IMG/VR virus record: IMGVR_UViG_3300028571_000031
Coordinates: 1 to 58,009 of that record
Strand: one strand, 5' to 3'
DNA length: 58,009 nucleotides
Source: a virus
Taxonomy: Duplodnaviria; Caudoviricetes
Part shown: in pieces, positions 1 through 17,870 of the stretch
Position numbering within the stretch: the first letter of the stretch is position 1
Layout of the letters: each line of letters begins with the position of its first letter
Notes under the pieces: generated by a model
What the model was told of the DNA's origin: nothing
Database searches by the model: none
The model's input: only the letters and a program-made list of their open reading frames with translations
Translations under genes and position numbers: made by a program

Positions 1-2
1 TG

Positions 3-470
3 GGCTACGCTGAGGCCGTCCGTAAGGGTGAGATTGATATTTGGTCTCTACGAGATCGAACAGGGAAGCCCAGATTCACGATTGAAGTGGACAAGAGCTA
101 CAAGGGGAAGCCCACTGGACACCACATTGAACAGCTGAAGGGTAAGGGTAACCGTACTCCGGGTTACGCAAGCACGAATACCAAAGAGGCAATCAAGTTC
201 CCTGACGAAGTTACCTTGTGGAATTACATCTTCAAGCAGCTTGGTATCAATCCAAAGCAGGTATCTGACTTCGCTGCCTGCAGAGTAGGCGACCAGCCAG
301 ACGCCACTGTTGCCGCTTCAACGCGGAACTTCGACAGACCGTACATGCCAACCATCGCCGTGTTGTCCAGAAGGCTTGATGGAGTGGCGGACTTCGTCTC
401 CATGAAGACACCGAAGGTCATACGAGCCGTGGCCCTCATGGAAGAAGCGGCTAGCATCCTGTCTAAGTAG
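3..470 (+). CDS. PcfJ-like domain protein, 5' truncated by the window edge
   Basis: Frame is open from position 3: GYAEAVRKGEIDIWSLRDRTGKPRFTIEV...IEQLKGKGNR matches the PcfJ-like pattern; C-terminal LMEEAASILS tag. Confidence 0.7.
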   Translation, partial: GYAEAVRKGEIDIWSLRDRTGKPRFTIEVDKSYKGKPTGHHIEQLKGKGNRTPGYASTNTKEAIKFPDEVTLWNYIFKQLGINPKQVSDFAACRVGDQPDATVAASTRNFDRPYMPTIAVLSRRLDGVADFVSMKTPKVIRAVALMEEAASILSK

Positions 471-473
471 TGC

Positions 474-502
474 TTGACTTCTCAAGTCAATCATGGTACA
501 AG
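474..502 (+). promoter_or_regulatory. sigma70-type promoter
   Basis: TTGACT-17 bp-TACAAG with extended -10 TG; palindrome TTGACTT-CTC-AAGTCAA overlaps the -35. Confidence 0.55.
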
Positions 503-526
503 TTGATCTCACAGTAGGAGATCAAC

Positions 527-829
527 TTGTCGAAGACTACGAAGAAGACGGTCGAAGACTTCGTTGCAAAGCTGCAAGATGGTACGTCGATTGAGATCGA
601 CACCAGTGCTGACGAGGTCAGCATCATCCTTGATGCTCCTCCGGGCCGGGTCTGGAACGAGAGCGGCTGCCACATCTCGTGTGGCATTCATGGTCACGGT
701 TTCGTCTTCTCGGGTAAGAGGATCAACTGGACTGCCACGCTGGCAGATGTGATCTCCATCATCGACCAAGGCACCGAGCTTTGTGATGACGAAGACTGCG
801 ACGCCTGTGGCCGAGACGCTGACAGCTAG
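527..829 (+). CDS. hypothetical protein
   Basis: TTG start with AGGAG RBS, downstream of the promoter; Cys-containing acidic C-terminus. Confidence 0.6.
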   Translation: MSKTTKKTVEDFVAKLQDGTSIEIDTSADEVSIILDAPPGRVWNESGCHISCGIHGHGFVFSGKRINWTATLADVISIIDQGTELCDDEDCDACGRDADS

Positions 830-886
830 CTGCCCTGCATGTACACTACTCTTGTTCTATTACATCCGCGTTTCAAGGAGCAATCG

Positions 887-1168
887 ATGCCAGTCAAAGA
901 AGAAACCACCATGACGAAGGCTGCAAAAGGCAGCACGAAGAGTGGGATTACCTTCACGGGTCTGCTGACCGTCGTGCTCATCACGCTGAAGTTGACGGGC
1001 ACTGGGCAGGTAGCCAGCTGGTCTTGGATCTGGGTGCTCAGCCCGTTGCTGATTGGCCCAGCGCTTTTCGTTGCGGTCTTGGTGCTGCTTGCTCTGGTGG
1101 TCGGATCGATCTTTGCGATCGACTGGTATATGGGCACCCGGAAACCCAAGCACCGTCGCTGGCGCTAA
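887..1168 (+). CDS. small membrane protein
   Basis: AAGGAG RBS; two hydrophobic segments and the LKLTG...WSWIWVLSPL motif common in phage membrane proteins. Confidence 0.7.
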   Translation: MPVKEETTMTKAAKGSTKSGITFTGLLTVVLITLKLTGTGQVASWSWIWVLSPLLIGPALFVAVLVLLALVVGSIFAIDWYMGTRKPKHRRWR

Positions 1169-1929
1169 GGCTTCTTGTCTCCTGCAAATCTAGACCGCTG
1201 CTCAGCAATACGAGCAGCGGTCTTTTCTCTTTGGTCGGCTACACGTGCAGCGCGGTCGTCAGCGGCGTCTGCTCGCTTCTCAGCGAGCTTCTCAGCGTTG
1301 GCCTTGGTCTTGGCTTCCCTAAGCTCCTTGGACGCTTGGCGCTTCTCAGCTTGAGCCTCACGCTTCTCTGTCTGCTCGCTCTCCCGCTTCTCCTTAGCCT
1401 TCAGCTGCTCCTGCTTCTTCTTGTCAGAAGCCTTCTTGATCTCAACCTTCTTCTGGGTCTTGGGGTCCTTCTTCTCTCTCTTCTTCTTCTCTTGGACCTT
1501 CTTCTCGTCCTTGGCTGCGATGGCGAAGAGCAAGAATAGGTGCTTGCAGACCCTCGGGATCATCTTGGGGTTGGTGAACCGTGGTCGCTGTCCGTTTGAT
1601 TGAACGACAGCTGATGACCCTTTGGACGCCAAAGCCACCTCGCAGTGGTATTTGAAGTATGGACAAGAACACCAGCACCAAACGTTTGTGCTTGCACTGA
1701 CTGGTCCATAGAAACGGGCTACCAGTTTACGCCAGCCGTCAGTGCACTTCACCCTGTACTTGTATTCTCGGTAAGTGCCGGTATCATCCGTGACGGAGTA
1801 TCCACCCACCTCAGTAACGGAGTTCTTAGACCTCCGAGGAGGGGCGTAACTGTGCCCGAAACACTGTGCTTGTGCTCTCTCTTTTGTCTTTGAGGGCGTA
1901 GCATGAAGGATGGATCTCAATGCCAGCAT
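1165..1929 (-). CDS. SWIM zinc-finger protein with charged coiled-coil tail
   Basis: CWCSCPYF...CKHL SWIM pattern; start reassigned to the ATG at 1929. Confidence 0.7.
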   Translation of the reverse strand: MLALRSILHATPSKTKERAQAQCFGHSYAPPRRSKNSVTEVGGYSVTDDTGTYREYKYRVKCTDGWRKLVARFYGPVSASTNVWCWCSCPYFKYHCEVALASKGSSAVVQSNGQRPRFTNPKMIPRVCKHLFLLFAIAAKDEKKVQEKKKREKKDPKTQKKVEIKKASDKKKQEQLKAKEKRESEQTEKREAQAEKRQASKELREAKTKANAEKLAEKRADAADDRAARVADQREKTAARIAEQRSRFAGDKKP

Positions 1930-3383
1930 CTGTATCTTCTTTCGACGAAAACGAGCGACCCACAGCAACTAAAAGGTCTATCAAGAAGAGTACAAAGAAG
2001 AAAGCACGAACAAGCTCTCATCTTGAAACACTCGTTTCGCATACGAAGAAGCTGACCGTTGACGAGCTTCTTGAGCTATATAGGGCGTACGACTCAGTCG
2101 TAATTGACTACGTATTCTCGCACCTATTGCTGCCACATACTCGCTTTGCCCGCACATGGCTCAGAGATCAGGTTCGTGACCTCTGTGCTGGTACCGACCG
2201 CAACAGGCTCATCCTGACGGCTCGTGAGAGGAAGCGGGCTGAGGCTGACTTCGAGTCAAGGGGTAAGACTGCCTACAGTGACATCCTGAAGCCGAAGCAT
2301 GACGAGTTCGCCCGCAAGGCACTCACTTGCCTTCGTGAGTGTGAACTAGACGGCGTCTCTGAAGAAACACTGGTGCAGGCAAAGAGTCTAGGTGTCAGCA
2401 GGCTTGTCTTCGACGACATGGGTAACTACTGCTACGCACTGACCGACAGGTACCCTGAGCTTCTGGCTGATTGGTGCTCAGCAGCGACTGTGGGTGACAC
2501 AGAAGACATGCAGCAGATAGAGGCGCAACTGGCTGCCATCCGTCTGGAGATCGGCATCAGGAGCTATGACGCTTGGTACGTCGTCATCAATCTCCGCTCC
2601 TGCTACGACCAGATTGACAGGATGGTGCAGACCGTCTGCCTCGGTTTCGCCAGACTCCTGTTTCGATTCGCTCACCAGCTACGCGGCGTGACCTCAACAG
2701 AGGAGAACTTCTCCGCTGGTTATGAAGGTCTGATGCGGGCAGCACGAAACTATGACCCCGTCGACGGAAGCTCATTCACTGCCCACTGCCAGTGGTGGGT
2801 GAGAAGTGCAGTGCTACAACGGCAGCGTCAAGCAAGTGTTATACTTCTACCGACGACGACGTGGTACCAGTTGTCGCTTCTTCAGCGTGGTAACTCGGAC
2901 CTGACTGACGACCGTGTGTCCTCTCTCAAGGAGAGGGCCGAGATGTTCTACACGAACTCGGCAAACGCCTCACGGTCCTTCGTTGATGATGATTCGGCCA
3001 ACGAGGGCTTCTCTTTTGAGGCCGTTCGAGTTACCAGTCCAGATGCTGCATTTGTGCTTGGCGATTCTCTAGCCAGAAGTCAGGCAACTCAGGATATCCA
3101 CGAATCGGACAACATCCGAAACATCGGATCTGAGGTGGCTCAGGAGATTATTTCCCTGATTCACGAGGAAGACCCATCGCTCCTATTCCCAGTGTTGCTC
3201 TGGGCTTTGAACTCGGGTATAGACTCAACACTCCTCGCCGAGGCAACAGCCCAGCTGTTCGTCAGTGAGGACAAATCGCTTGCGGAAAAACTTCGTCATG
3301 AAAATGCGAAGTCGTTCCAACAGGCACTTGAAAAGAAAAACCAAACGGTTGCTAGCGCAACCAACAAACACAGGAAAACCTAA
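1920..3383 (+). CDS. phage sigma70-family RNA polymerase sigma factor
   Basis: Region 2 motif GYEGLMRAARNYDPVDGSSFTAHCQWWVRSAV...ILLP; start codon uncertain. Confidence 0.8.
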   Translation: MPASVSSFDENERPTATKRSIKKSTKKKARTSSHLETLVSHTKKLTVDELLELYRAYDSVVIDYVFSHLLLPHTRFARTWLRDQVRDLCAGTDRNRLILTARERKRAEADFESRGKTAYSDILKPKHDEFARKALTCLRECELDGVSEETLVQAKSLGVSRLVFDDMGNYCYALTDRYPELLADWCSAATVGDTEDMQQIEAQLAAIRLEIGIRSYDAWYVVINLRSCYDQIDRMVQTVCLGFARLLFRFAHQLRGVTSTEENFSAGYEGLMRAARNYDPVDGSSFTAHCQWWVRSAVLQRQRQASVILLPTTTWYQLSLLQRGNSDLTDDRVSSLKERAEMFYTNSANASRSFVDDDSANEGFSFEAVRVTSPDAAFVLGDSLARSQATQDIHESDNIRNIGSEVAQEIISLIHEEDPSLLFPVLLWALNSGIDSTLLAEATAQLFVSEDKSLAEKLRHENAKSFQQALEKKNQTVASATNKHRKT

Positions 3384-4381
3384 TGGCAACGTCCCTAAAG
3401 AAGGCAGCGAAAGATTCCGGAACCAGTGGTCGATTCGACGACCCAATCAAGGGGGATATGTACCAAATCCCCACGAAGAACACGCAGATTCGTGCTTGGG
3501 AAGAAGTGCACGAAGCTCGCTCCCACTACGTGGAGTTCTACTCGGAGAAGAAGGGTGGGAAGACCGGCTTCCCTGAATTCTGCCTCAACTGGGATCCTGT
3601 CAAGGAAGCCGTAGTTGATGGTGGTTGCCCACTGTGCGAGAAGGGTCACAAGACTCAGACGCACTACTACCTGTACATCATCGAGCGTCGCGCTCAGCAG
3701 AAGACCGGCAGCACCATCGTCAAGGTGGTTCGCTTCACCGGGAAGTTCGCTGGCAAGGTCGGCAAGCTGTCTGAGATGGCCTACCCCGACATGGACCCAG
3801 ATGAGGCTCCAGACGCAACTGACCGGAAGCAAGGCTTCGACATCTTCATCTCCCAGAGCAACAACTCGGGCAAGACGGAGTATGAGTGCGGCCAGAGCGA
3901 CAAGAAGCCCCTGACCAAGGACGAGATCGCGGCCTTCGAAGACTACGCTGAAGAGCACAACATCTCGAAGATGATCAAGCCCTTCATCCGCAGCCGGACG
4001 GAAGTCCTGAACCAGTTGACCAAGATGGGTGTTGACGGCTTCGGTGGAAGCAAGCCCGCTGGTGGTGGTCGTGAGCAGGGTCAGGCTCGCGGCAAGAAGC
4101 GCTCCTACGAGGACTTCGATGAGGTCCCAGAGGATGGCGACAAGGAGCCAGCAGCCAAGCCCAGCCGAAAGGCACGTGATGAGGACGATGAGCCCCCAGC
4201 ACGCAAACCTGCGAAGCGCACCTCCCTGACGGGAGATGACGATGAGGAAGACGCGGATGACGTGCGTCCCAAGGGCAAGAGCCGCCTCGACAAAGAGGAC
4301 GATGAGCCGCCAGCCAAGCCACGTCGCTCGTACGCGACAGCATCAGCTGACGATGCCCCCGACGCCGACGACGAGGAGTGA
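3383..4381 (+). CDS. single-stranded DNA-binding protein (gp32-like)
   Basis: His/Cys zinc ligands (H...C...CPLC), aromatic OB-like core, long acidic tail, located next to recA. Confidence 0.7.
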   Translation: MATSLKKAAKDSGTSGRFDDPIKGDMYQIPTKNTQIRAWEEVHEARSHYVEFYSEKKGGKTGFPEFCLNWDPVKEAVVDGGCPLCEKGHKTQTHYYLYIIERRAQQKTGSTIVKVVRFTGKFAGKVGKLSEMAYPDMDPDEAPDATDRKQGFDIFISQSNNSGKTEYECGQSDKKPLTKDEIAAFEDYAEEHNISKMIKPFIRSRTEVLNQLTKMGVDGFGGSKPAGGGREQGQARGKKRSYEDFDEVPEDGDKEPAAKPSRKARDEDDEPPARKPAKRTSLTGDDDEEDADDVRPKGKSRLDKEDDEPPAKPRRSYATASADDAPDADDEE

Positions 4382-4387
4382 ACTAGG

Positions 4388-4867
4388 ATGCTGAGATTGG
4401 TGGATTCCATGTCTTGTATTACGGTCGCCGAAGTAGAAAAGCTCCTGAAAGCGACAGTAGGTAAGGCATGGATCCTCCTTCTCACAGAACCACCGCGTTC
4501 TGTGCCAAAGGTCAAGCCCGGTATCCAGTCACTGACATACCGGGTTCTTGATTCCCTGATTGCAGACAGAGGTCCTCTTGATGAGTCCCTCAAGAGCTTC
4601 GCGAAGCAAAGGCCACGCATTAGCTACCTCCGTGTAGCTATTGACCGAAACAATACCGAGGTAATGACGAAGCTCGGTGTTGTTTGGCTTCCGCAAGTTC
4701 GGGTCATGAAGAATGGAAGGTCACTCTTCCGTTCTTCAGTTTCCACTGGAGACAATGGGCAATTCTTGGCGCAAGACGTTGGTGGTAAGAGTTTCGTTCG
4801 TCGGACATCTTCACCAACTGGTCTCATCAATCTCGTCGATGCTCTGAGTGCAGAGCTAGACCGCTAG
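4388..4867 (+). CDS. thioredoxin-fold protein lacking CxxC
   Basis: YLRVAID...LGVVWLPQVRVMKNG resembles the thioredoxin C-terminal half with its cis-Pro. Confidence 0.5.
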   Translation: MLRLVDSMSCITVAEVEKLLKATVGKAWILLLTEPPRSVPKVKPGIQSLTYRVLDSLIADRGPLDESLKSFAKQRPRISYLRVAIDRNNTEVMTKLGVVWLPQVRVMKNGRSLFRSSVSTGDNGQFLAQDVGGKSFVRRTSSPTGLINLVDALSAELDR

Positions 4868-4876
4868 GGAGTTACA

Positions 4877-6193
4877 ATGGCAACAAAGAAAACACCAAAA
4901 GCATCTGCCGACGCAGATGCTGCCAAGGTTTCGACTGCAAAATCTGGTTCAAAGGAGAAGAAGAGTCTTCTCGATATCATCTCGGGCATCGAGAAGGAGA
5001 AGGGGGTCAAGAACGTTGACCTCGTATCTCGTGGCTCAGACTACCTGAGCACGGGTTGTCTGTCGCTCGACCTGATCATGGGCGGCGGCTACTTTGGTGG
5101 TCGAGTGCTTCAGATCTATGGGGGTGCAGGTGTCGGTAAGTCCTCTCTCGCTTTGATGGCTGGTAAGGCCCTCCAGCGAAAGAAGGTCATCACCCTCTTC
5201 CGTGATCACGAGGGTACGACAGACCCTGAGTACGCCAATGCGCTGGCGAAGAGCATCGGCTTCGACCCACGGGAGACCAATGGTGGTTACTTCCGCTACA
5301 GCCGTCCAAAGGACGGTGTGGAGACGTACGAACTCATGCTGTCGATCCTGCAGTCGCTGGATGACTGCAACGGTGGACCGCCACCGGTGGCTTTCATGAT
5401 CGACTCCGTGGCAACCATGCCTACGCGTGGCGAGATGGAAGACTGGGAGAAGAACAAGCGCATGGCGCAGCGTGCCACGATGCATTCGGAATGGTGGGGT
5501 CGATTGCGGTCTTTGATCTCTGCCAAGAATGCAGCGCTCATCGCCGTCAACCAGATTCGAGCCAACCCAAGCCCCTACGCTGCCCCTGAGACGCGTCCCG
5601 GTGGTAATGCGTGGGAGTACTCCACTGACAACCTCGTCAAGGTGAAGAAGGGCAAGCCAGTTGAAGTGAACGGCGAAGTCTACCAGCCGATGAAGTTCAA
5701 GACCGAAAAGAACAAGAACTTCATCAGCCATCAGGAATGTGAAGTGTTCCTGAACCTCGGTAAGGGCATCGACCCAGCATCTGACGTGCTTCAGTTCTTG
5801 AAGCTCATTGGTTGCTACACCAAGGTCCAGATCGGCAAGAAGAAGTTCCCAGCAATCGTTGGGCTTGGCAAGGACTTCGACGGTGACTTCAAGAGTGCAG
5901 CGGCACTTGAAGACGTGATCCGTGAAGAACGCGCTGCTTCGCTGAACGACCCTGAACTGATCCCACAGACCTTGTTCGGCGCTTGTGAGGCACTGCTGCG
6001 AAGCGGTGAGGCTCGCACCCGCTACATGGACGAGAAGAAGAAGACAAAAGAGCCTGCTGAGGGTGAGGAGAACGAAGACTCCGCTACCACCAAGCAGACG
6101 TCTGTGACCGGATCCAACGAAGAAGAGCTTGACTCGGATGACGATTCCGAGTCAGAAGAAGAAGCCCCCAAGCTGGGCGTCAAGAAGACCTGA
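4877..6193 (+). CDS. recA: RecA/UvsX recombinase
   Basis: STGCLSLDLIMGGG, Walker A GGAGVGKS, IDSVA, NQIR and PGGNA motifs. Confidence 0.93.
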   Translation: MATKKTPKASADADAAKVSTAKSGSKEKKSLLDIISGIEKEKGVKNVDLVSRGSDYLSTGCLSLDLIMGGGYFGGRVLQIYGGAGVGKSSLALMAGKALQRKKVITLFRDHEGTTDPEYANALAKSIGFDPRETNGGYFRYSRPKDGVETYELMLSILQSLDDCNGGPPPVAFMIDSVATMPTRGEMEDWEKNKRMAQRATMHSEWWGRLRSLISAKNAALIAVNQIRANPSPYAAPETRPGGNAWEYSTDNLVKVKKGKPVEVNGEVYQPMKFKTEKNKNFISHQECEVFLNLGKGIDPASDVLQFLKLIGCYTKVQIGKKKFPAIVGLGKDFDGDFKSAAALEDVIREERAASLNDPELIPQTLFGACEALLRSGEARTRYMDEKKKTKEPAEGEENEDSATTKQTSVTGSNEEELDSDDDSESEEEAPKLGVKKT

Positions 6194-6247
6194 TCGCTTT
6201 CTTGTACAAACAGCACCCAACCAAACGAAGACCAAAGGATATACAAA

Positions 6248-6598
6248 ATGGCAACGAAGAAGAACAAAGACGGCAACGAGAAGCCGACCACCCGCCGAGC
6301 CAAGCTTGAAGCGAAGCTCATCGACAAGTTGGGACAGGACGTGCTTGACACGATCTTGTCCTCCAGCGCAGAGGAACTCCAGTTCAAGCTTGGCTCACTG
6401 GCCAAGTACGAAGTGGACACAGAAGAGTCGCTTGAGAAGGACGAGGGCATTGCGAAGCTCTCTGACGACCTCAAGCAGATGAAGGCCCCCTACACCGACA
6501 TCATCAAGGGCATCAAGCTCCAGCGGAATGTGATCGCCAGCGTGATGCAGGAACTTGGTCGTCAGACTACATTGGCCGGTCTCAAGCCGAAGATCTGA
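6248..6598 (+). CDS. hypothetical coiled-coil protein
   Basis: AAGGA RBS and phage-like codon usage. Confidence 0.7.
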   Translation: MATKKNKDGNEKPTTRRAKLEAKLIDKLGQDVLDTILSSSAEELQFKLGSLAKYEVDTEESLEKDEGIAKLSDDLKQMKAPYTDIIKGIKLQRNVIASVMQELGRQTTLAGLKPKI

Positions 6599-6625
6599 AT
6601 CAACAGCAAGATCCAAACGTCGGAC

Positions 6626-6654
6626 TTGCACTCCAAAGTAACCAGTGCTATAAG
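6626..6654 (+). promoter_or_regulatory. sigma70-type promoter of the leader and tRNA operon
   Basis: TTGCAC-17 bp-TATAAG with extended -10 TG. Confidence 0.75.
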
Positions 6655-6663
6655 GTGTCCATC

Positions 6664-6759
6664 ATGTTCTTCCTCAGCATCTCCCTCAGCTATAGTTCCT
6701 CGTCAGCGCTCTTGTCGCTGTCGAGCCTATGCTCATGCGGAGAGGTACTTGTCGACTGA
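6664..6759 (+). CDS. attenuator leader peptide MFFLSISLSYSSSSALLSLSSLCSCGEVLVD
   Basis: 31 codons including 11 Ser, 7 Leu, 2 Cys and 1 Tyr; lies between the promoter and the terminator; absent from the ORF track because of its size. Confidence 0.85.
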   Translation: MFFLSISLSYSSSSALLSLSSLCSCGEVLVD

Positions 6760-6802
6760 ACACTAAGGCCACTGTCTTAGGTTTGACAAAGACCCCTCTC
6801 CG
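6738..6802 (+). promoter_or_regulatory. antiterminator structure
   Basis: CGGAGAGG (6738-6745) pairs with CCTCTCCG (6795-6802); TTGTCGA (6749-6755) pairs with TTGACAA (6783-6789); inner hairpin CTAAGGC/GTCTTAG. Confidence 0.8.
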
Positions 6803-6827
6803 GAACCCGGCGAGGGGTTTTTTGTTT
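6788..6827 (+). terminator. intrinsic terminator (attenuator)
   Basis: GACCCCTCtCCGG-AAC-CCGGcGAGGGGTT hairpin followed by a T tract. Confidence 0.9.
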
Positions 6828-6868
6828 CCTGAAAACCGAATAATCAAGAAGATAGCTTGTTAGCTTGT

Positions 6869-6944
6869 GCCGACGTAGACCAATGGTAGAGTCAACTGGT
6901 CGAGGGCCAGTGTAGCGTGGGTTCGACCCCCACCGTCGGTACCA
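6869..6944 (+). tRNA. tRNA-Leu(GAG), short variable region, C33
   Basis: Acceptor GCCGACG/CGTCGGT, anticodon arm ACTGG-TCGAGGG-CCAGT, encoded ACCA end. Confidence 0.8.
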
Positions 6945-6946
6945 AT

Positions 6947-7035
6947 GCCCGGATGGTGGAACAGCTAGACACAGTGCTCTCAAACAGCGCCGCGACGAAA
7001 GAAGCTTGGGGGTTGAAATCCCCCTCTGGGTACCA
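6947..7035 (+). tRNA. tRNA-Leu(CAA)
   Basis: Cloverleaf with loop CTCAAAC, long variable arm, ACCA end. Confidence 0.9.
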
Positions 7036-7055
7036 ATAGCTAGCAAGCGTAATGT

Positions 7056-7180
7056 GCCGGGATGCTGGAACAGGGTGGACGAATCAAGAAGCCTTGACAC
7101 TTCTCAATCAAGGGCTGACAATAGCCGAGGTTGCGAGAAGACTCAACGCAAGCAGGTCAGTGATAAGATCGACCGTATGT
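7056..7180 (+). pseudogene. 5' part of a tRNA-Leu followed by an HTH-coding fragment
   Basis: GCCGGGATGCTGGAACAGG resembles the 5' end of the neighbouring Leu tRNA; the following sequence encodes EALTLLNQGLTIAEVARRLNASRSVI. Confidence 0.55.
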
Positions 7181-7257
7181 GCTGCTGTATCCCAACTGGC
7201 AGAGGAAACTGATTTAGATTCAGTGTAGTGTAGGTTCGAATCCTATTAGCAGCACCA
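7181..7257 (+). tRNA. tRNA-Leu(TAG), short variable region
   Basis: Acceptor GCTGCTG/TAGCAGC, anticodon arm ACTGA-TTTAGAT-TCAGT, ACCA end. Confidence 0.88.
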
Positions 7258-7271
7258 GTTAGATAGATAAT

Positions 7272-7361
7272 GGGAAGAAGGTCACTGTCGGTTTGTGGCG
7301 CCGGTCTGTAAAACCGGATCCCTTCGGGGAATCGTGGGTTCAACTCCCTCTCTTCTCACCA
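7272..7361 (+). tRNA. tRNA-Tyr(GTA)
   Basis: CCGGT-CTGTAAA-ACCGG, long variable arm, ACCA end. Confidence 0.9.
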
Positions 7362-7370
7362 GTTTGAGAT

Positions 7371-7460
7371 GCCCAGATGGCGAAATTTGGTAGACGCACA
7401 ATCTTCAGATGGTTGCGGCCCGTAAGGGCCGTGGGAGTTCGAGTCTCCCTTTGGGCACCA
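7371..7460 (+). tRNA. tRNA-Leu(CAG)
   Basis: CAATC-TTCAGAT-GGTTG, long variable arm, ACCA end. Confidence 0.92.
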
Positions 7461-7468
7461 GAAGCTAC

Positions 7469-7600
7469 GGTTTAGGTTTGAGAGAGCCGAATGTTAGTGG
7501 ATTATCCTGCAAAGATAATTGGTTCGAATCCAAAGCATGACTAGCAATAGTCATGTGGCAAGTGTCGAAAGACAACGGTGCCAACCTCCATAAACTACCA
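7469..7600 (+). ncRNA. atypical tRNA-like RNA with a Cys (GCA) anticodon arm and two extra GNRA hairpins
   Basis: TTATC-CTGCAAA-GATAA arm, TTGG-TTCGAAT-CCAA T-arm, extra hairpins, CCA at 7588-7590 and again at 7598-7600. Confidence 0.65.
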
Positions 7601-7630
7601 CTTGCTCTCTGTTCGTTTATTTTTGGGTAT

Positions 7631-7718
7631 GGATAGTGAAGTTGGGCATGGGCTAACCCCTCACTGGAAACGAGGTGGCACCTTCGGGTGTAGGGATCGA
7701 GACCCTCGCTATCCGCCA
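7631..7718 (+). tRNA. tRNA-Ser(GGA), 8/4 fold
   Basis: 8-bp acceptor GGATAGTG/CGCTATCC, 4-bp T-stem, loop CTGGAAA, GCCA end. Confidence 0.85.
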
Positions 7719-7734
7719 GTTCGTGTTCGTGTAT

Positions 7735-7824
7735 GGAGAGTGATGTTGGAAGTGGTCTGGCCCCGGTCTCGAAAACCGAGGTACGCCGTAAGGTGTAGGA
7801 GTTCGAATCTCCCTCTCTCCTCCA
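7735..7824 (+). tRNA. tRNA-Ser(CGA), probable 8/4 fold
   Basis: Loop CTCGAAA, long variable arm, TCCA end. Confidence 0.85.
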
Positions 7825-7843
7825 GTTCGATGTTCGTTGTTGT

Positions 7844-7935
7844 GGAAGGGTGTCCGAGTGGTTTATGGAACTCGTCTTGAAAACGAGAGTGTGCCTAAAA
7901 AGCCACCGTGGGTTCGAATCCCATCCCTTCCTCCA
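7844..7935 (+). tRNA. tRNA-Ser(TGA)
   Basis: CTCGT-CTTGAAA-ACGAG, long variable arm, TCCA end. Confidence 0.93.
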
Positions 7936-7950
7936 GTCAAGTCAGGGTAT

Positions 7951-8042
7951 GGAAAGACGGTAGAGTTTGGAGCGCTACACAGGTTTGCTAAACCTGCCGA
8001 GCCGAAAGGCCGGAAAGGGTTCGAGTCCCTTTCTTTCCGCCA
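7951..8042 (+). tRNA. tRNA-Ser(GCT)
   Basis: CAGGT-TTGCTAA-ACCTG, long variable arm, GCCA end. Confidence 0.92.
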
Positions 8043-8044
8043 AT

Positions 8045-8091
8045 GAAAAGCCCAGATGTGTTCTAAACGACACATCTGGGCTTTTCTCTTT
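8045..8091 (+). terminator. intrinsic terminator closing the tRNA operon
   Basis: GAAAAGCCCAGATGTGT...ACACATCTGGGCTTTTC followed by TCTTT. Confidence 0.85.
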
Positions 8092-8105
8092 GTGCACTCT
8101 GGAGC

Positions 8106-9395
8106 ATGCCCATCGTCACCGCCTCTCCAAAGAAGTACGACCACATCAGCCTGACGCCTCCAGAAGGAGTCAGGAAGGCCGCGAAGCGGGGTCTTGAACT
8201 TCGTCGTGAGTTCGGTCGCGGCGGAACAGCCGTCGGCGTGGCTCGTGCTCGTGACCTGTCAAACGGCAAGTCCGTCAGCCCAGACACTGCCAAGCGGATG
8301 AAGGCGTACTTCGATCGTCACCAGCCTGACCAGAAGGCTGAAGGCTTCGACTCTGGTGAGAAGGGCTACCCCAGCGCCGGTCGTGTAGCTTGGCTGCTCT
8401 GGGGGGGCGACGCGGGCTACTCTTGGGCCAAGAAGGTCGTGCTGCAGATGGAAGCTGCCGACAAGAAAGTGAGTGGGTCAGCTGAGAAGCCATCAGCTGG
8501 AGAGTTCGCTCGCTTTGCAGGTGCTGGTGAGTGCACCGAAGTAGCGGAAGTCATAGAGAAAAGTAAGTTGGGGCGTAAGTATGGTCTGAAAAGGGTCGAC
8601 GGTGGCTACCTCTTCGGTAGCCGTTGGGGCGAACATTCTTGGGTCGAGAGCCCTGACGGTACCATTGTAGATGCAACTCATGGTCAGTTTGACCCTGCTG
8701 TACCAGTACTCGTTGCAGAGGTCGGTAGTTTGGAGCACTCCCGCTATCTGGCAGCTGAAGACATGACGCAGGACCAGCTGACAGACGTTTACGAGAGGAA
8801 GCCATCAATGGCTCATGTCGTACTGGCTCTGCACATGGCAGCTGACGCACTTGCAGGTGACACCAGTGAAGTCGATGCTTCACTAGCAACCGCGCTGGGG
8901 CTCGCGGTCGGTCTTGGACTTGGTGGTCAGACACCAACGACGCCGAGCTACAGCAACGAGACAACGATGGAGTGGACGGCAGACAGCTTGGAGCCAGAGC
9001 TTCAGCCGATTGCGTACCTTGAGTCCAAGAACAACCATGGGCTCGCGCACAAGACCCATTCGAAGGGCGAGTGGAACACAGCCTATGGCGCCCTCGGCAT
9101 GAAGCCGTCATCTGGCTATGATCAATACCAGAAGTCACCCTCGCTGAAGTCTGACTACCCCGGACTGGACGAGGAGTCTTTCGAGTCTCTCTTCCGAGAG
9201 GACACAGACTTCTACAACGCCGTGGCGAACGACCACTGGTTGGGGCTGATCAGCAAGCTCGGCACCCCAGAGAGAGCCGCATTCGCGTGGCGCTTTGGCC
9301 GTGGCGCAGCCTTGAACGCAACTGACGAAGAGATCAAAGCTGCTCCATACGTGAAGGCGTACATGCGCTTGCTTGGTGAGAGTTCTTCGTCGTAG
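8106..9395 (+). CDS. multidomain virion-type protein: conserved phage domain, transglutaminase/papain-like domain and SLT-like muramidase
   Basis: RVAWLLWGGDAG N-domain; C...HSWVE...IVDAT triad pattern; IAYLES...AYGALGM...AW..G.G...YV SLT pattern. Confidence 0.6.
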   Translation: MPIVTASPKKYDHISLTPPEGVRKAAKRGLELRREFGRGGTAVGVARARDLSNGKSVSPDTAKRMKAYFDRHQPDQKAEGFDSGEKGYPSAGRVAWLLWGGDAGYSWAKKVVLQMEAADKKVSGSAEKPSAGEFARFAGAGECTEVAEVIEKSKLGRKYGLKRVDGGYLFGSRWGEHSWVESPDGTIVDATHGQFDPAVPVLVAEVGSLEHSRYLAAEDMTQDQLTDVYERKPSMAHVVLALHMAADALAGDTSEVDASLATALGLAVGLGLGGQTPTTPSYSNETTMEWTADSLEPELQPIAYLESKNNHGLAHKTHSKGEWNTAYGALGMKPSSGYDQYQKSPSLKSDYPGLDEESFESLFREDTDFYNAVANDHWLGLISKLGTPERAAFAWRFGRGAALNATDEEIKAAPYVKAYMRLLGESSSS

Positions 9396-9412
9396 GCTTC
9401 GCAACCTATCCT

Positions 9413-12400
9413 ATGACCATCAAAGTGCTTTCTGCCAAGTACATGAGCAACCAGTGCTCCGTCTGCCCGTCCTGCAAAGACGAGTTGGAGGAGTCTGGTC
9501 TGTCTCTGAACAACAAGAAGGACATTGGCATCGTGTACACATGCCCATGTGGCAAGTCGAAGGTCTGGACCAATAGAGCCAGAAACGATGCTAGACTTCT
9601 GTTCTTCCTTGAGAAGAAGCCACACCCAGTGTATGGCATGTCACCATACACTATTGGTTTCTGTAATGACATGCATGATGGTTTCAAGTTTGATGACATC
9701 ACCATACTCAAAGGTGGCGTCGAAGGAACAGTCGACGAGACTGGTGAGAACCCTGCAGACCTGATCGGCAACGACCACGTTCAGATTCTACACTGGCGGG
9801 GAAAAGAGCTTCAGGTAGGTCAAGAAGACCAGATTCTCGAAATCTATCGCCGCCGACTCCCAGAGCTAAAAGCTCTGGTTGAGGGATTCTCCAGCAAGAC
9901 GACTGCAAGCTCAGACAGCTTCAGATACTGGAACAACTGCACGAGTACCGATGATGAACTGGTAGACTGGATCAGGGGGAGAGCCACGAACATTGGTGGT
10001 CCCAAAGCAGATGAGATCGACTTCGACGAGTTCACTGCCCAAGTAGACCCTTCTGAACTCCAGCACGAGGACATCGATACGGACTGGCACGTCCACTTCT
10101 TTGAGTCCACTCTGCCATCTGGCGAACCGATTGTGTACTACACGCACAGCGGTATCGAGTGGTTCTTCGCTATGGGCCACGTGGACCAAGACAAGGAGCT
10201 TGCCATTATCAGCAAGCTGAATGATGAGAAGTATGGAGTCAGTGCTTCAGCCTCTTCCGAATTCAACTCGTGGTTCCGAAACTCCAAGGTCGTGAAGGCC
10301 GATGGGAGCCCCGCTGTTGTCTACCACGGCACCAACAGCGCCTTCTCCGAGTTCGATGCTGAGAAGGGCTCTGGCTTCTTCGGGACTGGGGTCTACGTCA
10401 CTGAGGACCAGAACGAAGCTGAGAAGTACGGGGAACACCTGCTTGAGCTTTACGCTCGGGCAGAGAATCCCATTGACCTCCGTGGAGATAACAAGGACTT
10501 CGACCGCGAGCTAGCGAAGATCGGGATCGAAGCTCCTTACGAGAAGCTCAGGACTGCGAAGGAGTTCCGAGACCGCGCAGTGAAGCTCCGAGCCGACCTC
10601 ATGGCCAAGGGCTACGACAGCGCCAGAATCACGACGTCTGATGGTGCTGACGGATGGGTGCTGTACTCGGCAGACCAAGTCAAACTCGTCACCAACACGC
10701 ACCCAACCGAGTCGACAAAGATTGGAGCTTCTCAAGACAAAGCCGGTGAAGGACGCTGGTCAAACCGCCAAGTCACCGATGTCTGGTATCACGGTGGCTC
10801 AAAAGAAGACGCTGCCTCTGCCAAGAAGCTCGGTCACTTCCCTGAAGAGTACACACCCCTTCGTGCCAACTGGGGGTCAGGCGTTTACCTGACCGCAGAC
10901 AAGAAGGAAGCCAAGAAGTTCGGCGACTCCGTTGTCGAAGTTGAACTGTCTTCAAGTCTGAAGATGCTTGACATTCGTGACAAGAACTACAGGGCCATGC
11001 CCAGCACGATCTCAGAACACCTGAAGAGTGAGGAAGCCGTTTCCCTCTTTGAGAAGCACTGGCCTCATGACCTTGGAACAGGCGTCAAGGCGGCGCTCAT
11101 TGCCGACGGATACGACGGTATTGTTTGGAAAGGTGATGAATGGCACGACTGGGCAGTCGTGTTCAATCCAACTCAAGCCAAAATACGACAGAGCAAGACA
11201 GTCAAAGCAGGATGGGAAGAAGGCGGTCATCACCTTCTTGTCGCATTCACGACGCCCCCAACTGATGAAGTCTTCGCTGCTCTGGACCAGACAGACAAGG
11301 TGCGTGAGAAGCTATATGCACACCGGGACCTGCCGAAGGTACCGCGCGGTGTTCGCCTCGACCTCCCATCGATGGCAAAAGGCATTGCTGTTGTCACAGT
11401 CCATGCCGGACCTTCAGGCGGCACCGTCATTGGTTATGACCACAGTGCTGTAATCAAAGACGTCAGGTTTGTCGTTCAAGCAGGTGCTCAAAAAGCAATC
11501 GGCGCTGAGGGCTCCAACAAGTTTCCGATGTCATTCATCGCTGGAGTACTACAAGATGTACCTGCTGAGCCAAAAGGAACTCCGGTCTATTACGACCCAC
11601 GCAAAGTTCACCTGTACGTAGATGCAACGAATATGCGCCCAGTACGCACAGCACATCTGGTCAATATGATTGGCAAGCAGGTGTATGCGACAGGACTTGA
11701 GTACTACACGGCTGACAACGTCCCACCAGCGCCAGACGGTATGAGCAGTGCTGTTCTTATGCCGACTGTGGAGACGGAAGCAGTCAGCGCCATGGCCTCG
11801 CCATACGATAAGGGATGGACTGACTTGCCACCCGGCAATGTGCCGGTTCCAACTCCGCTGAAAGACAAACCGACGCTGTGGGCAAAGGTCGCTGACCGAC
11901 TTGGTCATGAAGTCGACAAAGGGCTGCAGCAGCGAGCCCCCGTCATCGGTGGTCGTCGTCGGCACAACAGGCCCATGACGTCTTGGCTCATGAGTGACGG
12001 TCGAGTCCTCTCGTTCACAACAGAGAAGCTCGAAGCAAAGACTTGGAACAACCTCAAAGGGAAAACACACCCAGCACTTCCTCATGTCTATGACGTGTTC
12101 TCCATTGGAGGAGACGGCGAAGAGCCCATGTGGGCAATCGTCCATGAGCAGCTGATCTGGCCTGTGCCTCCCGAATGGGAATCCTTCGTCGACAACTTCT
12201 TCCGTTGGCGAGCACTGGAGAAGAACGCACTCCATCCAGCAACACCACAGGACCTAGAAGACTTCCTCCGCTTCGTGATTGACCCAGAGGTCACCGACGC
12301 AAAGACAGTGAAGAAGAAGCAAGTCGAGAATGCTCTCCCATGGGGCATGGCGAAATCACGTCGAGTGGACTTCACTGATCGTCGTAAGGAAGTCTTCAAG

Positions 12401-12661
12401 CTCAAAGGTCTTGAAGAGATGATTGCTTGGGCCAAGGAAGCTCTCAGCTACCTCAAGCAGAACAACGTCAAGTTCCGTGACCTAGACCCGTCGAATCTCG
12501 CAGTCACCAAGCACGGTGACCGGGTTGTCGTCACGAATCTCGCCGAGTCGAATTCGATTCCAACCAAGACAGGACGAACCGGTCGAGTGAAGGCATCGGA
12601 TGATGGCAACGGCCACGGGCCAATACAACCGGTACTTGACTTGTCCCTTATATTGTGCTAA
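9413..12661 (+). CDS. polyvalent protein with two ADP-ribosyltransferase-like domains and a kinase-like C-terminal domain
   Basis: VYHGT...FGTGVYVT...A.KYG...GYD and WYHGG...WGSGVYLT...GYDG; HPALPHVYDVF...FRDLDPSNL. Confidence 0.7.
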   Translation: MTIKVLSAKYMSNQCSVCPSCKDELEESGLSLNNKKDIGIVYTCPCGKSKVWTNRARNDARLLFFLEKKPHPVYGMSPYTIGFCNDMHDGFKFDDITILKGGVEGTVDETGENPADLIGNDHVQILHWRGKELQVGQEDQILEIYRRRLPELKALVEGFSSKTTASSDSFRYWNNCTSTDDELVDWIRGRATNIGGPKADEIDFDEFTAQVDPSELQHEDIDTDWHVHFFESTLPSGEPIVYYTHSGIEWFFAMGHVDQDKELAIISKLNDEKYGVSASASSEFNSWFRNSKVVKADGSPAVVYHGTNSAFSEFDAEKGSGFFGTGVYVTEDQNEAEKYGEHLLELYARAENPIDLRGDNKDFDRELAKIGIEAPYEKLRTAKEFRDRAVKLRADLMAKGYDSARITTSDGADGWVLYSADQVKLVTNTHPTESTKIGASQDKAGEGRWSNRQVTDVWYHGGSKEDAASAKKLGHFPEEYTPLRANWGSGVYLTADKKEAKKFGDSVVEVELSSSLKMLDIRDKNYRAMPSTISEHLKSEEAVSLFEKHWPHDLGTGVKAALIADGYDGIVWKGDEWHDWAVVFNPTQAKIRQSKTVKAGWEEGGHHLLVAFTTPPTDEVFAALDQTDKVREKLYAHRDLPKVPRGVRLDLPSMAKGIAVVTVHAGPSGGTVIGYDHSAVIKDVRFVVQAGAQKAIGAEGSNKFPMSFIAGVLQDVPAEPKGTPVYYDPRKVHLYVDATNMRPVRTAHLVNMIGKQVYATGLEYYTADNVPPAPDGMSSAVLMPTVETEAVSAMASPYDKGWTDLPPGNVPVPTPLKDKPTLWAKVADRLGHEVDKGLQQRAPVIGGRRRHNRPMTSWLMSDGRVLSFTTEKLEAKTWNNLKGKTHPALPHVYDVFSIGGDGEEPMWAIVHEQLIWPVPPEWESFVDNFFRWRALEKNALHPATPQDLEDFLRFVIDPEVTDAKTVKKKQVENALPWGMAKSRRVDFTDRRKEVFKLKGLEEMIAWAKEALSYLKQNNVKFRDLDPSNLAVTKHGDRVVVTNLAESNSIPTKTGRTGRVKASDDGNGHGPIQPVLDLSLILC

Positions 12662-12664
12662 GAA
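12636..12664 (+). promoter_or_regulatory. possible sigma70 promoter
   Basis: TTGACT-17 bp-TAAGAA with extended TG; ATG 6 nt downstream. Confidence 0.4.
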
Positions 12665-12670
12665 GTGACG

Positions 12671-13360
12671 ATGTCGAACCATCGAGATAACCTGCTTGAA
12701 GCAGCGCAGCTTCTCACAGCCGTTGCCTACGGCCTTGATGATGAAGACACCACAGACAGCCTTCTCGCAATTGCACATAAGATCCGGGGCAATACACTCA
12801 TGGGGTCACTTCCAGACCGATCGGTCATGTTTGGCCTCAACCGGTTGCTGTCAGACCTCGGATCCAAGTGGGCAGTGATCGGAGGCATGGCCGTTGCTGT
12901 TCATGGGCATGAACGAGAGACGTCTGACATTGACGTTCTGATCGACGCCCTGCCGGATGCCACAAAGACCATCGACTCGGCCTATATGGACCGGTTCGGC
13001 TTCTATCGAGGCAAGAGCCGAACCGGAGGACACTTGGTTCTGGACCACAAGCAGGGTCAATGCGAGTTCCTCCCCGCCAAGGAGGAATGGCAGATGTGGG
13101 CCATTGAGAACGCCACACCAGAGATGGTGCTGGGCTTGTCCGTTCCGGTCATTCGACCAGAAGCTGTCATTGTCTCAAAGCTGAAGGCCACCACTCAGAA
13201 CCCTCTTCGTGAGAAGAAGGATATCCCTGACGTCCTCAGTGTCCTTCTTAACCACAAGGACACCCTCGATTACGGGGTAATCCTGATGTGGCTGACGCCG
13301 CAGGAAGCTGCGAAGTTCTCGAAGCTCGCTGACGCGAACTCCATTTCCATTCCTGAGTGA
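12671..13360 (+). CDS. Pol-beta superfamily nucleotidyltransferase (AbiEii-related type)
   Basis: VIGGMAVAVHGHERETSDIDVLI motif and R.KKDIPD; N-terminal LLEAAQLLTA tag. Confidence 0.8.
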   Translation: MSNHRDNLLEAAQLLTAVAYGLDDEDTTDSLLAIAHKIRGNTLMGSLPDRSVMFGLNRLLSDLGSKWAVIGGMAVAVHGHERETSDIDVLIDALPDATKTIDSAYMDRFGFYRGKSRTGGHLVLDHKQGQCEFLPAKEEWQMWAIENATPEMVLGLSVPVIRPEAVIVSKLKATTQNPLREKKDIPDVLSVLLNHKDTLDYGVILMWLTPQEAAKFSKLADANSISIPE

Positions 13361-13366
13361 TTCAGT

Positions 13367-13443
13367 TGGTGCGCCGACAGGGACTCGAACCCTGATAGTT
13401 CCACGTGATTAAGGTGGGTGCCTAACCTTTCGGCCATCGGCGC
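13367..13443 (-). tRNA. tRNA-like gene with a 9-nt anticodon loop (identity undetermined)
   Basis: Acceptor GCGCCGA/TCGGCGC, T-arm CAGGG-TTCGAGT-CCCTG, ACCA end; CCAC-CTTAATCAC-GTGG. Confidence 0.75.
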
Positions 13444-13475
13444 ATAGCCCCATGTACCATGGGGGAATCAGTATC

Positions 13476-13907
13476 TCAAGCCTGAACTGGTGCTGCCTCC
13501 TCAACAGCCTGAATTGGGATCGTGATGACAAGACCACCAAGTGCGTGAGGCGCCTTCGCCAGTGCCCTGCTCAGGTGGCTGTCCTGCTCGTCCAAGCTCT
13601 TGCCTTCAAGGTGAAGGTGAGGTGTGACGCGCAGGTGTGCACGAAGTGCGTACAACCACGTCAGGGGATTCACAGCACCTCCCTTGAAGTCAACGTAGTG
13701 GAACACAGCACTAGCCCGGTCATCCGGCCCCGGACAAGTCAGGTGACTACGAACCTCAGCCGCAGCGTAGACACCCAGCTTCTCATCATTGGGGTACAAA
13801 GACTTCCAGACGTCGTCGGTATTGCTACAGTCACGAGCAGCCGCCTCAAGCTTGAGACGCAGCGTGTTCCAAGCTTCAAAGTTCAACTTCATCTTTTCAT
13901 TTAGCAT
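13476..13907 (-). CDS. hypothetical protein
   Basis: ORF overlapping the end of the PTH2-like gene, with an AGGTG RBS. Confidence 0.65.
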   Translation of the reverse strand: MLNEKMKLNFEAWNTLRLKLEAAARDCSNTDDVWKSLYPNDEKLGVYAAAEVRSHLTCPGPDDRASAVFHYVDFKGGAVNPLTWLYALRAHLRVTPHLHLEGKSLDEQDSHLSRALAKAPHALGGLVITIPIQAVEEAAPVQA

Positions 13908-14272
13908 TTGATTTCACCTTCCAAAGCCGCAGGTGTTTGACAGCCCTCGATTTCCCGTGCGGTGTCAGGAAGCCGAAAGACATAGCTTGCCCGAGCCACG
14001 GAGGATCGGGTTCGCGAATTAAATGTGGCATGTGCTCGGAACCAGCGTCGATTTCAGCGAACAAAGACAGAAGTTCGTCTTCGTTCGCCACAGCAAGTAC
14101 GACGGCTATGGTTCCGGGATCAGCTGGAGTACCCTCACTCTCACCAGCTGCGTGAACAGCCATGGCAAGAGCGGTGCCCACAGGGAGATCTTCCCGTAGG
14201 ATTACGTAGTGGTAACTTTGTGAGGCTGGTGCCTCTCGCGCAACGCGAGGCAGGTCAATCGGAAATCAGCAT
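13897..14272 (-). CDS. peptidyl-tRNA hydrolase PTH2-like protein, start probably recoded
   Basis: YVILREDLPVGTALAMAVHAA...VVLAV.NEDEL...IREPD pattern; the frame is open from 14265 and the ATG at 14272 is in a different frame. Confidence 0.7.
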
Positions 14273-14278
14273 GAAAGA

Positions 14279-14307
14279 CACATAGCCACCAACCCCACAG
14301 TCGGCAA
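14279..14307 (-). promoter_or_regulatory. sigma70-type promoter giving a leaderless mRNA
   Basis: TTGCCG-17 bp-TATGTG; the ATG at 14272 coincides with the expected +1. Confidence 0.5.
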
Positions 14308-14308
14308 G

Positions 14309-14449
14309 TCAGTTAGGACAGATCCACTTCACAGCGACAGTGTCTGGTCCGACTTGCTTGGTGATGATGCGACACTCCGCATAGCGCAGCGCGATGACCT
14401 CGTAGGGGTTGAGCAGGAAGGCCATGATAACAGCAGCAAGAGCAGCCAT
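14309..14449 (-). CDS. small hydrophobic protein
   Basis: GAGGTGG RBS; MAALAAVIMAFLL N-terminus. Confidence 0.4.
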   Translation of the reverse strand: MAALAAVIMAFLLNPYEVIALRYAECRIITKQVGPDTVAVKWICPN

Positions 14450-14494
14450 AACTACCACCTCATATTTAAGAGTGCTCGATCTGCACTCTGCAAC

Positions 14495-15076: not shown

Positions 15077-15085
15077 AGAGCAATC

Positions 15086-15943: not shown

Positions 15944-15954
15944 AGGCGATCAAC

Positions 15955-16128
15955 GTGCAGACAATCGAATGTGCAGTATTCACGGAACTGCTGACAAACG
16001 GCTCGTGGCCTCACCCAGACGAACTCGAACGTGCAGAGGACGCAGCCGCTGTTGTACGCATTGAACGCATGCGTGACTACGTCATTGCTCGCCTTCAGCA
16101 GGCCATCGAATCATCAACACTTGGGTGA
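15955..16128 (+). CDS. small hypothetical protein
   Basis: 57-aa ORF filling the gap between two genes. Confidence 0.45.
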   Translation: MQTIECAVFTELLTNGSWPHPDELERAEDAAAVVRIERMRDYVIARLQQAIESSTLG

Positions 16129-16134
16129 CGAAGT

Positions 16135-16524: not shown

Positions 16525-16527
16525 AGC

Positions 16528-16801: not shown

Positions 16802-16818
16802 TCGAAAGGGTCGGCGCG

Positions 16819-17867: not shown

Positions 17868-17870
17868 ATT

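Follow-up and report, generated by a model that had tools for sequence, protein, structure and literature searches.

A serine-, leucine-, tyrosine- and cysteine-rich leader frame upstream of a phage tRNA array: a candidate ribosome-mediated transcription attenuator

The window analyzed here is the whole 58,009-bp contig IMGVR_UViG_3300028571_000031 (Duplodnaviria; Caudoviricetes), which has a G+C content of 54.5% and carries nearly all of its genes on the plus strand. Its gene content is that of a tailed phage, including a large terminase, a portal protein, a ribonucleotide reductase, a UvsX-like recombinase and SSB. Downstream of the SSB/UvsX/gp116 genes, a 31-codon open reading frame (ORF), an intrinsic terminator and an array of tRNA genes follow one another on the same strand, and a second, strong terminator closes the array (Table 1). 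ARAGORN called Leu(GAG), Leu(CAA), Leu(TAG), Tyr(GTA), Leu(CAG), Ser(TGA) and Ser(GCT) in the array, and Rfam placed six tRNAs above threshold. The leader ORF lies 110 nt upstream of this array, in which every one of the seven called tRNAs is specific for Leu, Ser or Tyr. A first-pass annotation of the sequence had read the ORF and its terminator as an attenuator of the trp/his type controlling the tRNA genes. Our analysis supported this reading through the composition of the ORF, the terminator, a competing antiterminator, the dependence of that antiterminator on ribosome position, and an analogous locus in the phage Tunturi_5.

The composition of the ORF was as annotated and exceeded what chance would give. 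Within the regulatory run of codons 4-25, 20 of the 22 codons specified Ser, Leu, Tyr or Cys (the other two were Ile6 and Ala15), against a background in which these four amino acids accounted for 19.9% of the 14,397 codons in the phage genes. The run ranked first among 61,392 stop-free 22-codon windows taken from all six frames of the whole contig; the runner-up loci, at 18/22 and 17/22, were off-frame readings of low-complexity coding sequence. Taken as a whole, the ORF had a Ser/Leu/Tyr/Cys fraction of 0.68, ranking first of 335 ATG ORFs of 20-60 codons (the next reached 0.59), and it also ranked first of 673 ORFs when all start codons were allowed. AGG/GGA motifs resembling the Shine-Dalgarno-like site of the leader precede other ATG genes of the contig at similar spacing, for example at 44187 and 56715. 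The leader peptide had no exact match, in either its 31- or its 34-amino-acid form, in a collection of 15 billion proteins. The leader RNA alone folded well (z -3.08, 0/200 shuffles).

The terminator proposed between the ORF and the array was confirmed, with a predicted energy of -24.0 kcal/mol and a U-run that ends 67-68 nt after the stop codon; including its extension, the structure reached -30.9 kcal/mol (z -5.4, 0/200 shuffles). The pairing proposed between the end of the ORF and the 5' arm of the terminator was also recovered, as a duplex between region 2 and region 3 (Table 1). When 6650-6782 was paired against 6783-6803, the antiterminator duplex had an energy of -21.4 kcal/mol, compared with -11.95 +/- 2.6 kcal/mol when the upstream part was dinucleotide-shuffled; 5 of 2000 shuffles reached the observed value (p = 0.0025). 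For RNA ending at 6803-6812, before the 3' arm of the terminator, the minimum-free-energy fold was the long antiterminator, in which CGGAGAGG (6738-6745) paired with CCUCUCCG (6796-6803) and UUGUCGA with UUGACAA. In the full-length fold, region 2 was kept inside the leader while the terminator formed.

The effect of a ribosome on this competition was modeled by masking a 30-nt footprint on nascent RNA 6650-6806 and counting how many of the 21 region-3 bases remained paired with region 2. A ribosome whose A site lay at codons 2-20 left 14-15 bases paired. The count fell to 10 at codon 22 and 7 at codon 24, and it was 0 from codon 26 to the stop (codon 32). Folding with the leader blocked, which the first-pass annotation had proposed, therefore predicted an antiterminator that is intact with the ribosome at codons 2-20 and abolished from codon 26 to the stop, in line with what that annotation had expected. 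As in leader-peptide attenuators, the locus has a short ORF with an ATG and a ribosome-binding-like site, a cluster of regulatory codons far above background, and an intrinsic terminator between the ORF and the tRNA genes. It also has, in the folding model, an antiterminator strand that is masked at the ORF end and free upon a stall at the regulatory codons.

Table 1. Features of the leader and tRNA locus and of compared phage loci. Positions refer to the window unless a locus number (L004-L006) is given.
Feature	Position	Strand	Basis or remark
Proposed sigma-70-like promoter (TTGCAC, 16 nt, TATAAG)	6626-6654	+	Earlier reading; unconfirmed
Shine-Dalgarno-like AAGGTG, 6 nt 5' of the ATG	6652-6657	+	Read from sequence
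Leader ORF, 31 codons and TGA	6664-6759 (ATG 6664, TGA 6757-6759)	+	Encodes MFFLSISLSYSSSSALLSLSSLCSCGEVLVD
Regulatory codon run, codons 4-25	6673-6738	+	11 Ser, 6 Leu, 1 Tyr, 2 Cys, 1 Ile, 1 Ala
Region 2, antiterminator 5' strand in the last ORF codons	6738-6756	+	Pairs with 6783-6803
Spacer hairpin, 7 bp with 4-nt loop, enclosed by the antiterminator; contains GTCTTAG	6763-6780	+	Nascent-RNA minimum-free-energy folds
Region 3, before and within the terminator 5' arm; common to antiterminator and terminator	6783-6803	+	Folds, duplex energy
Intrinsic terminator	Stem 6788-6822, U-run to 6827	+	-24.0 kcal/mol; terminator listing
tRNA array	6869-8042	+	7 tRNAs by ARAGORN
Closing terminator, strong, 18-bp stem	8045-8086	+	Terminator listing
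Tunturi_5 leader ORF, directly upstream of array	L006 19592-19690	Same strand as array	Encodes MKTLCLSSYCLSSSLSLSDGWDLRTGRDADMI
Matched block, Tunturi_5 Leu/Ser/Tyr/Cys			p <= 0.02
Short ORF before matched block, Tunturi_5 Gln/Gly/Thr	L006 27607-27915		
Short ORF before matched block, LR756500 His/Glu/Val/Trp	L005 1034-1200		Leader MKAISVHIIHIWEHLLEEVNINIM
Short ORF before matched block, Atu_ph07 Ala/Arg/Phe	L004 4635-4940		ORF annotated as 42-aa hypothetical protein

A comparable arrangement was present in Tunturi_5, described as a cultured 309-kb jumbo myovirus of Tunturiibacter psychrotolerans X4BP1 (PP885688.1; PMC11924767). We examined 40-kb stretches around tRNA matches in three public phages, which were chosen only because one tRNA matched the query. 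The first array in the Tunturi_5 stretch comprised Leu(CAA), Cys(GCA), Leu(GAG), Leu(CAG), Tyr(GTA), Leu(TAA), Ser(GCT), Ser(GGA) and Ser(CGA), the same amino-acid set as the contig array, Cys included. In the leader ORF that precedes it, all 15 of codons 4-18 were Ser, Leu, Tyr or Cys, placing this run at the top of 52,244 windows in the 40-kb locus, and the seven Ser codons in it represented all six possible ones (given codon usage, P = 0.034). This leader uses CTA and TCA, which have no Watson-Crick anticodon in its array, and lacks CTG and TTA, though the array has matching anticodons. The Tunturi_5 terminator (-23.5 kcal/mol) has a U-run extending up to the last base ahead of the first tRNA, which leaves no room for a separate promoter. 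In the nascent fold, the ORF segment GGUUGGGACUUGCG was paired with the terminator 5' arm.

Alignment of the contig leader with the Tunturi_5 leader showed no convincing homology. In both phages, the richest Ser/Leu/Tyr/Cys frame examined lay approximately 60-200 nt upstream of a Leu/Ser/Tyr(/Cys) array and on the same strand, a placement whose chance was approximately 0.2-0.3% in each of the two. Tunturi_5 offers an independent analogue in an unrelated phage.

The search for matched leaders was extended to tRNA blocks of at least three tRNAs in seven public phage loci. For each block, the best 12-codon window of any ATG ORF ending 10-220 nt upstream was scored for the amino acids of that block and compared with a null of 600 random positions. 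Four of the 15 blocks reached p <= 0.02, against approximately 0.3 expected (Table 1). All four were in jumbo phages, and in all four a terminator-like hairpin with a U-run followed the short ORF.

Variation within the phage population was examined by comparing contigs from four runs of four studies with positions 6200-8300. A 16,771-bp contig from run X3 matched 6200-6844 with 16 differences, 14 of which are listed. Those listed within 6599-6844 were 6615 A>G, 6679 A>C and 6690 C>T. The listed changes in the leader were ATC to CTC at 6679 (Ile6 to Leu) and AGC to AGT at 6690 (Ser to Ser), and the two differences outside the listing could also fall in the leader. The X3 similarity ended at 6844 and resumed at 7605 on a second contig, and the leader and terminator therefore persisted as a unit before an altered first half of the array. 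Runs X6 and X8 provided short, near-identical pieces. The variation in X3 fits selection on leader composition, within a small sample.

We consider it likely that the leader and terminator act as a ribosome-mediated (leader-peptide) transcription attenuator gating the phage tRNA array. In the mechanism proposed, transcription would enter from upstream, having run on through the SSB/UvsX gene block or begun at another promoter, and a ribosome would translate the 31-codon leader with its run of nearly exclusive Ser, Leu, Tyr and Cys codons. When the charged tRNAs are plentiful, the ribosome would reach the end of the ORF and cover region 2. Positions 6788-6803 would then pair with 6807-6822, the terminator would form and the tRNA genes would stay silent. 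When any of these tRNAs is scarce, the ribosome would stall within codons 2-20, leaving region 2 free to pair with newly made region 3. The terminator would be blocked, and RNA polymerase would read into the Leu, Ser and Tyr tRNA genes. The new tRNAs would speed translation of the leader and turn the array off again, closing a negative feedback loop. We infer translation of the ORF, coupling of transcription with translation, read-through, feedback and a natural trigger; anticodon nucleases, toxins or starvation may provide the trigger, as the first-pass annotation had suggested.

Several observations weigh against this interpretation, beginning with the folding model itself. The protector duplex between regions 1 and 2 was matched or bettered by 98% of shuffles, and the number of terminator-arm bases paired upstream in the nascent folds (8) was reached or exceeded by 107 of 500 shuffles. 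The nascent RNA also showed the antiterminator without a ribosome, and termination without translation therefore needs a kinetic assumption. When the full-length RNA was folded at equilibrium, the terminator won under every ribosome mask. Classical attenuators likewise need kinetic assumptions. In Tunturi_5, the antiterminator duplex was not significant (p = 0.13). Region 2 of that phage was fully masked only with the ribosome at codons 20-26 and partly masked at 16-18 and 28, and a ribosome at the stop codon left it unmasked. In the other four of the seven loci surveyed, from 7t3 (Salmonella), BillNye (Streptomyces) and the cyanophages S-WAM2 and S-H68, none of seven multi-tRNA blocks reached p <= 0.02. 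The idea that other phage tRNA arrays would have upstream short ORFs matching their tRNAs thus held for the four matched blocks and failed in these four loci, and the arrangement of a leader before a tRNA block is recurrent, not universal. None of the 10 listed sequencing runs that contain DNA of the contig was recorded as RNA.

Further points of the same kind concern the array and its codons. Three of the ten array members that had been claimed lacked an above-threshold tRNA call. A probable Ser(CGA) at 7734-7821 was seen by Rfam only below threshold (42 bits vs a gathering score of 47, tRNA-Sec model), and a Ser(GGA)-like element (~7629-7718) and a Cys-anticodon tRNA-like RNA (7469-7600) were called by neither ARAGORN nor Rfam and were seen by eye only. 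The claim that every anticodon of the array has a cognate leader codon stood for the seven called tRNAs, with Tyr served by the wobble codon TAT only. An exact match of leader codons to anticodons was unsupported. When 11 Ser and 6 Leu codons were drawn from genome usage, the presence of all eight Watson-Crick Ser/Leu cognates had P = 0.063, and at most one non-cognate codon had P = 0.054. Two other loci at ~25.9 kb and ~30.0 kb, both within real genes, covered 9-10 of the 10 array-cognate codons within 22 codons. The codon-level match is weak evidence and adds little over the match at the amino-acid level. The absence of TTA from the leader, which had been offered as a further argument, was uninformative because TTA makes up only 5 of the 1292 Leu codons in the phage genes.

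The source of transcription is a related difficulty. The promoter claimed upstream of the leader could not be confirmed, as it was absent from a scan for the sigma-70 consensus, which may not be the promoter type of the host. Its -10 element (6649-6654) overlaps the Shine-Dalgarno-like AAGGTG, and the promoter therefore excludes that site unless the mRNA is leaderless. The leader is either read on a transcript arriving from upstream or made as a nearly leaderless mRNA, and not both. By the same consensus, which may not be that of the host, sigma-70-like sites were not enriched in 1-20000 (7 found vs 7.8 expected), and none lay in the 41 nt between the terminator and the first tRNA (6827-6868). 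The array itself contains a promoter-like site at 7094-7122 (10/12 matches), from which the distal tRNAs could be transcribed separately. No plus-strand terminator was found within 5500-6788, and upstream transcripts would therefore reach the leader terminator.

Such uninterrupted transcription would suit another explanation, in which the terminator merely ends the SSB/UvsX/gp116 unit, the ORF is a chance frame in a CU-rich structured spacer, and the tRNAs arise from constitutive leak-through or from an unrecognized promoter. Off-frame Ser/Leu-rich frames do occur elsewhere in the contig (the 18/22 and 17/22 loci), the 1:2 pairing is no better than chance, and promoters of a host that does not follow the sigma-70 consensus could have been missed. 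This explanation is nevertheless improbable. It makes a coincidence of the fact that the richest Ser/Leu/Tyr/Cys frame, with an ATG and a Shine-Dalgarno-like site, stands just before a Leu/Ser/Tyr array, and that coincidence would have to recur in Tunturi_5. The significance of the antiterminator (p = 0.0025) also speaks against it, as do the two listed X3 substitutions, both of which keep or add Ser or Leu.

The element could instead function as RNA, with 6661-6827 being a small regulatory or processing RNA in which the open frame is irrelevant. It might be a terminator-ended small RNA that targets ribosome-binding sites by base pairing through its CU-rich loops (UCCC, CUCCCUC), or it might form a long hairpin that RNase III cleaves, freeing the tRNA precursor. 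The long hairpin into which the leader folds (z -3.08) is consistent with this, and the proposed promoter, if real, would start the transcript approximately 2-3 nt before the ATG, without the Shine-Dalgarno-like site. The lack of any Rfam family match to the leader is compatible with a new RNA. We regard this as very improbable, since it leaves unexplained the match between composition and array, the recurrence in Tunturi_5 of a leader that cannot be aligned, and the amino-acid-conserving X3 substitutions. The ORF could also be translated and act otherwise, as a hydrophobic micropeptide or through stalling that works via Rho, RNase cleavage or transcript stability. Start signals are present, and the equilibrium folding model alone gives no termination without a ribosome. 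Against a role for the peptide itself stand its low complexity, its lack of an exact match among the 15 billion proteins and its resemblance to the Tunturi_5 peptide in composition, not sequence. A terminator and a significant competitor also lie exactly where a hairpin switch needs them, making such other modes of action hardly probable.

If the leader is an attenuator, its nearest relatives are the multivalent attenuators of enterobacterial amino-acid operons, such as the thr leader (Thr, Ile) and the ilvGMEDA leader (Ile, Leu, Val), alongside trpL, hisL and leuL. In the thr- and ilv-type attenuators as in this locus, a short ORF is densely packed with the codons of more than one amino acid, the intrinsic terminator lies approximately 65-70 nt past the stop codon, and the end of the ORF supplies the antiterminator strand, which the terminating ribosome would cover. 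Unlike them, the present leader is a phage element that would regulate tRNA genes in place of biosynthetic enzymes, and its protector 1:2 pairing is not demonstrably selected. The products would be the very molecules whose shortage is sensed, and the feedback would therefore be direct, unlike that of the thr- and ilv-type. The pheST attenuator with its pheM leader controls an aminoacyl-tRNA synthetase, and the phage element resembles it in that the target of leader-peptide attenuation would be part of the translation machinery instead of a biosynthetic pathway. However, pheST senses a single amino acid and yields a protein product in a cellular host, and the phage leader would sense four amino acids and yield RNA products. 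To our knowledge, the described leader-peptide attenuators all regulate genes for amino-acid biosynthesis or aminoacyl-tRNA synthetases; the genes downstream of the present leader are tRNAs. No published leader-peptide attenuator of tRNA genes was found in the literature searched, which did not include subscription journals and supplements.

T-box riboswitches also couple the choice between terminator and antiterminator to the availability of a particular tRNA, but they bind uncharged tRNA directly and need no ORF. A T-box identity was rejected, as no T-box covariance model matched at E <= 1 within 6000-8600, and the other listed Rfam matches fell inside the array. No cis-regulatory Rfam family reached its gathering score in the same interval.

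The one inducible tRNA array that is well studied, the supplementary trn operon of Anabaena sp. PCC 7120, is described as a silent 26-gene array that is induced under translational stress and whose repressor targets direct repeats covering the -10 box and start site (PMC8421152, PMC10272220). The contig array would likewise be off until translation is impaired, under control by leader-peptide attenuation, unlike the promoter repressor of Anabaena. The Anabaena operon has tRNA-repair genes nearby, as does Tunturi_5, in which an RtcB-like ligase and a CCA-adding enzyme adjoin the arrays. PMC8421152 contains no word beginning with attenuat- and neither of the words leader and terminator, and PMC10272220 contains none of attenuat-, leader peptide, terminator and uORF.

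The presence of tRNA genes in phages is the subject of a long-standing debate that sets codon compensation against escape from tRNA-targeting defenses (PMC10264068). If an attenuator does sense the amino acids of its own array, the phage tRNAs would be an on-demand repair kit, turned on by decoding failure and turned off by its own product. The textbook trp/his mechanism would then extend to RNA genes and to viruses, and leader composition would be a sequence signature predicting which tRNAs a host defense or stress removes. The architecture is present in a cultured pair, Tunturi_5 and Tunturiibacter psychrotolerans X4BP1, and the question is therefore directly testable.

A broader possibility, which we hold to be doubtful, is that the leader and array form a portable self-regulating cassette for type II (long-variable-arm) Leu, Ser and Tyr tRNAs plus Cys, retained in large phages that are unrelated to one another and infect freshwater and tundra-soil hosts, and firing only on depletion. 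Such a cassette would point to an undescribed bacterial defense that removes type II tRNAs, and the odd tRNAs of the array, among them two Leu tRNAs of 76-77 nt and a Leu(GAG) with C33, would be nuclease-resistant replacements. This suggestion draws on array content and on an analogy with Schlafen nucleases. The eukaryotic SLFN11 and SLFN14 remove type II tRNAs. The prokaryotic Schlafen CbCash is described as acting broadly on the T-loop, unlike SLFN11 (PMC13462974), and a role of prokaryotic Schlafen (Cash) proteins as type II tRNA nucleases therefore stays speculative. By analogy, the Cys-anticodon element may be part of the cassette, because the Tunturi_5 array includes an ordinary tRNA-Cys between its Leu tRNAs.

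Searches for relatives of the locus returned little beyond the contigs described above. In the phage collection, the DNA search gave single-tRNA matches only, and all 1052 records matching UvsX were below 60% identity, with no close relative among them. Scans of IMG/VR with gp116, UvsX, a UvsX alignment and the terminator sequence gave no match, and no homologous locus was found in GTDB genomes. A metagenome scan yielded one 2,076-bp contig ending right after UvsX and two distant loci, and the protein collection held UvsX relatives at 97, 77 and 63% identity. The contig comes from lake or freshwater metagenomes. An identical gp116 protein (6248-6598) was found on five contigs, the longest of 162,949 bp, which makes it probable that the 58-kb contig is only part of a far longer phage genome. 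The near-absence of TTA from the Leu codons of the phage genes, at a G+C content of only 54.5%, may reflect a TTA-avoiding host. The phage also encodes an AbiEii-like nucleotidyltransferase (12665-13357), a DUF2204 nucleotidyltransferase (15086-15940) and a 2H phosphoesterase of the 2'-5' RNA ligase superfamily (49798-51537), for which functions in RNA or tRNA end modification or repair are possible.

The motif GTCTTAG occurred between the leader stop codon and the terminator in both phages (window 6774-6780; L006 19691-19697), with a second copy just before the leader ATG in Tunturi_5 (L006 19577-19583). Its common occurrence could be due to chance or to a shared processing or binding site.

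Several tRNAs of the contig array had unusual features. Bacterial tRNA-Leu has a long variable arm, yet two of the four Leu tRNAs (6869-6944 and 7181-7257) were only 76-77 nt long and lacked it. A U at tRNA position 33 is nearly universal, and Leu(GAG) had a C there (the ARAGORN anticodon 34-36 corresponds to genomic 6902-6904). The Ser(GGA)-like element had an odd T-loop. A 145-nt gap in the array started with the apparent 5' part of a Leu-type tRNA (~7055-7080, by eye), and a 58-aa ORF in the gap (7052-7225) matched the resolvase HTH_7 domain (24.3 bits, cut-off 23.8). The promoter-like site at 7094-7122 also falls in this gap. The region of the gap (7036-7257) looks like the remnant of a mobile element inserted in a tRNA gene.

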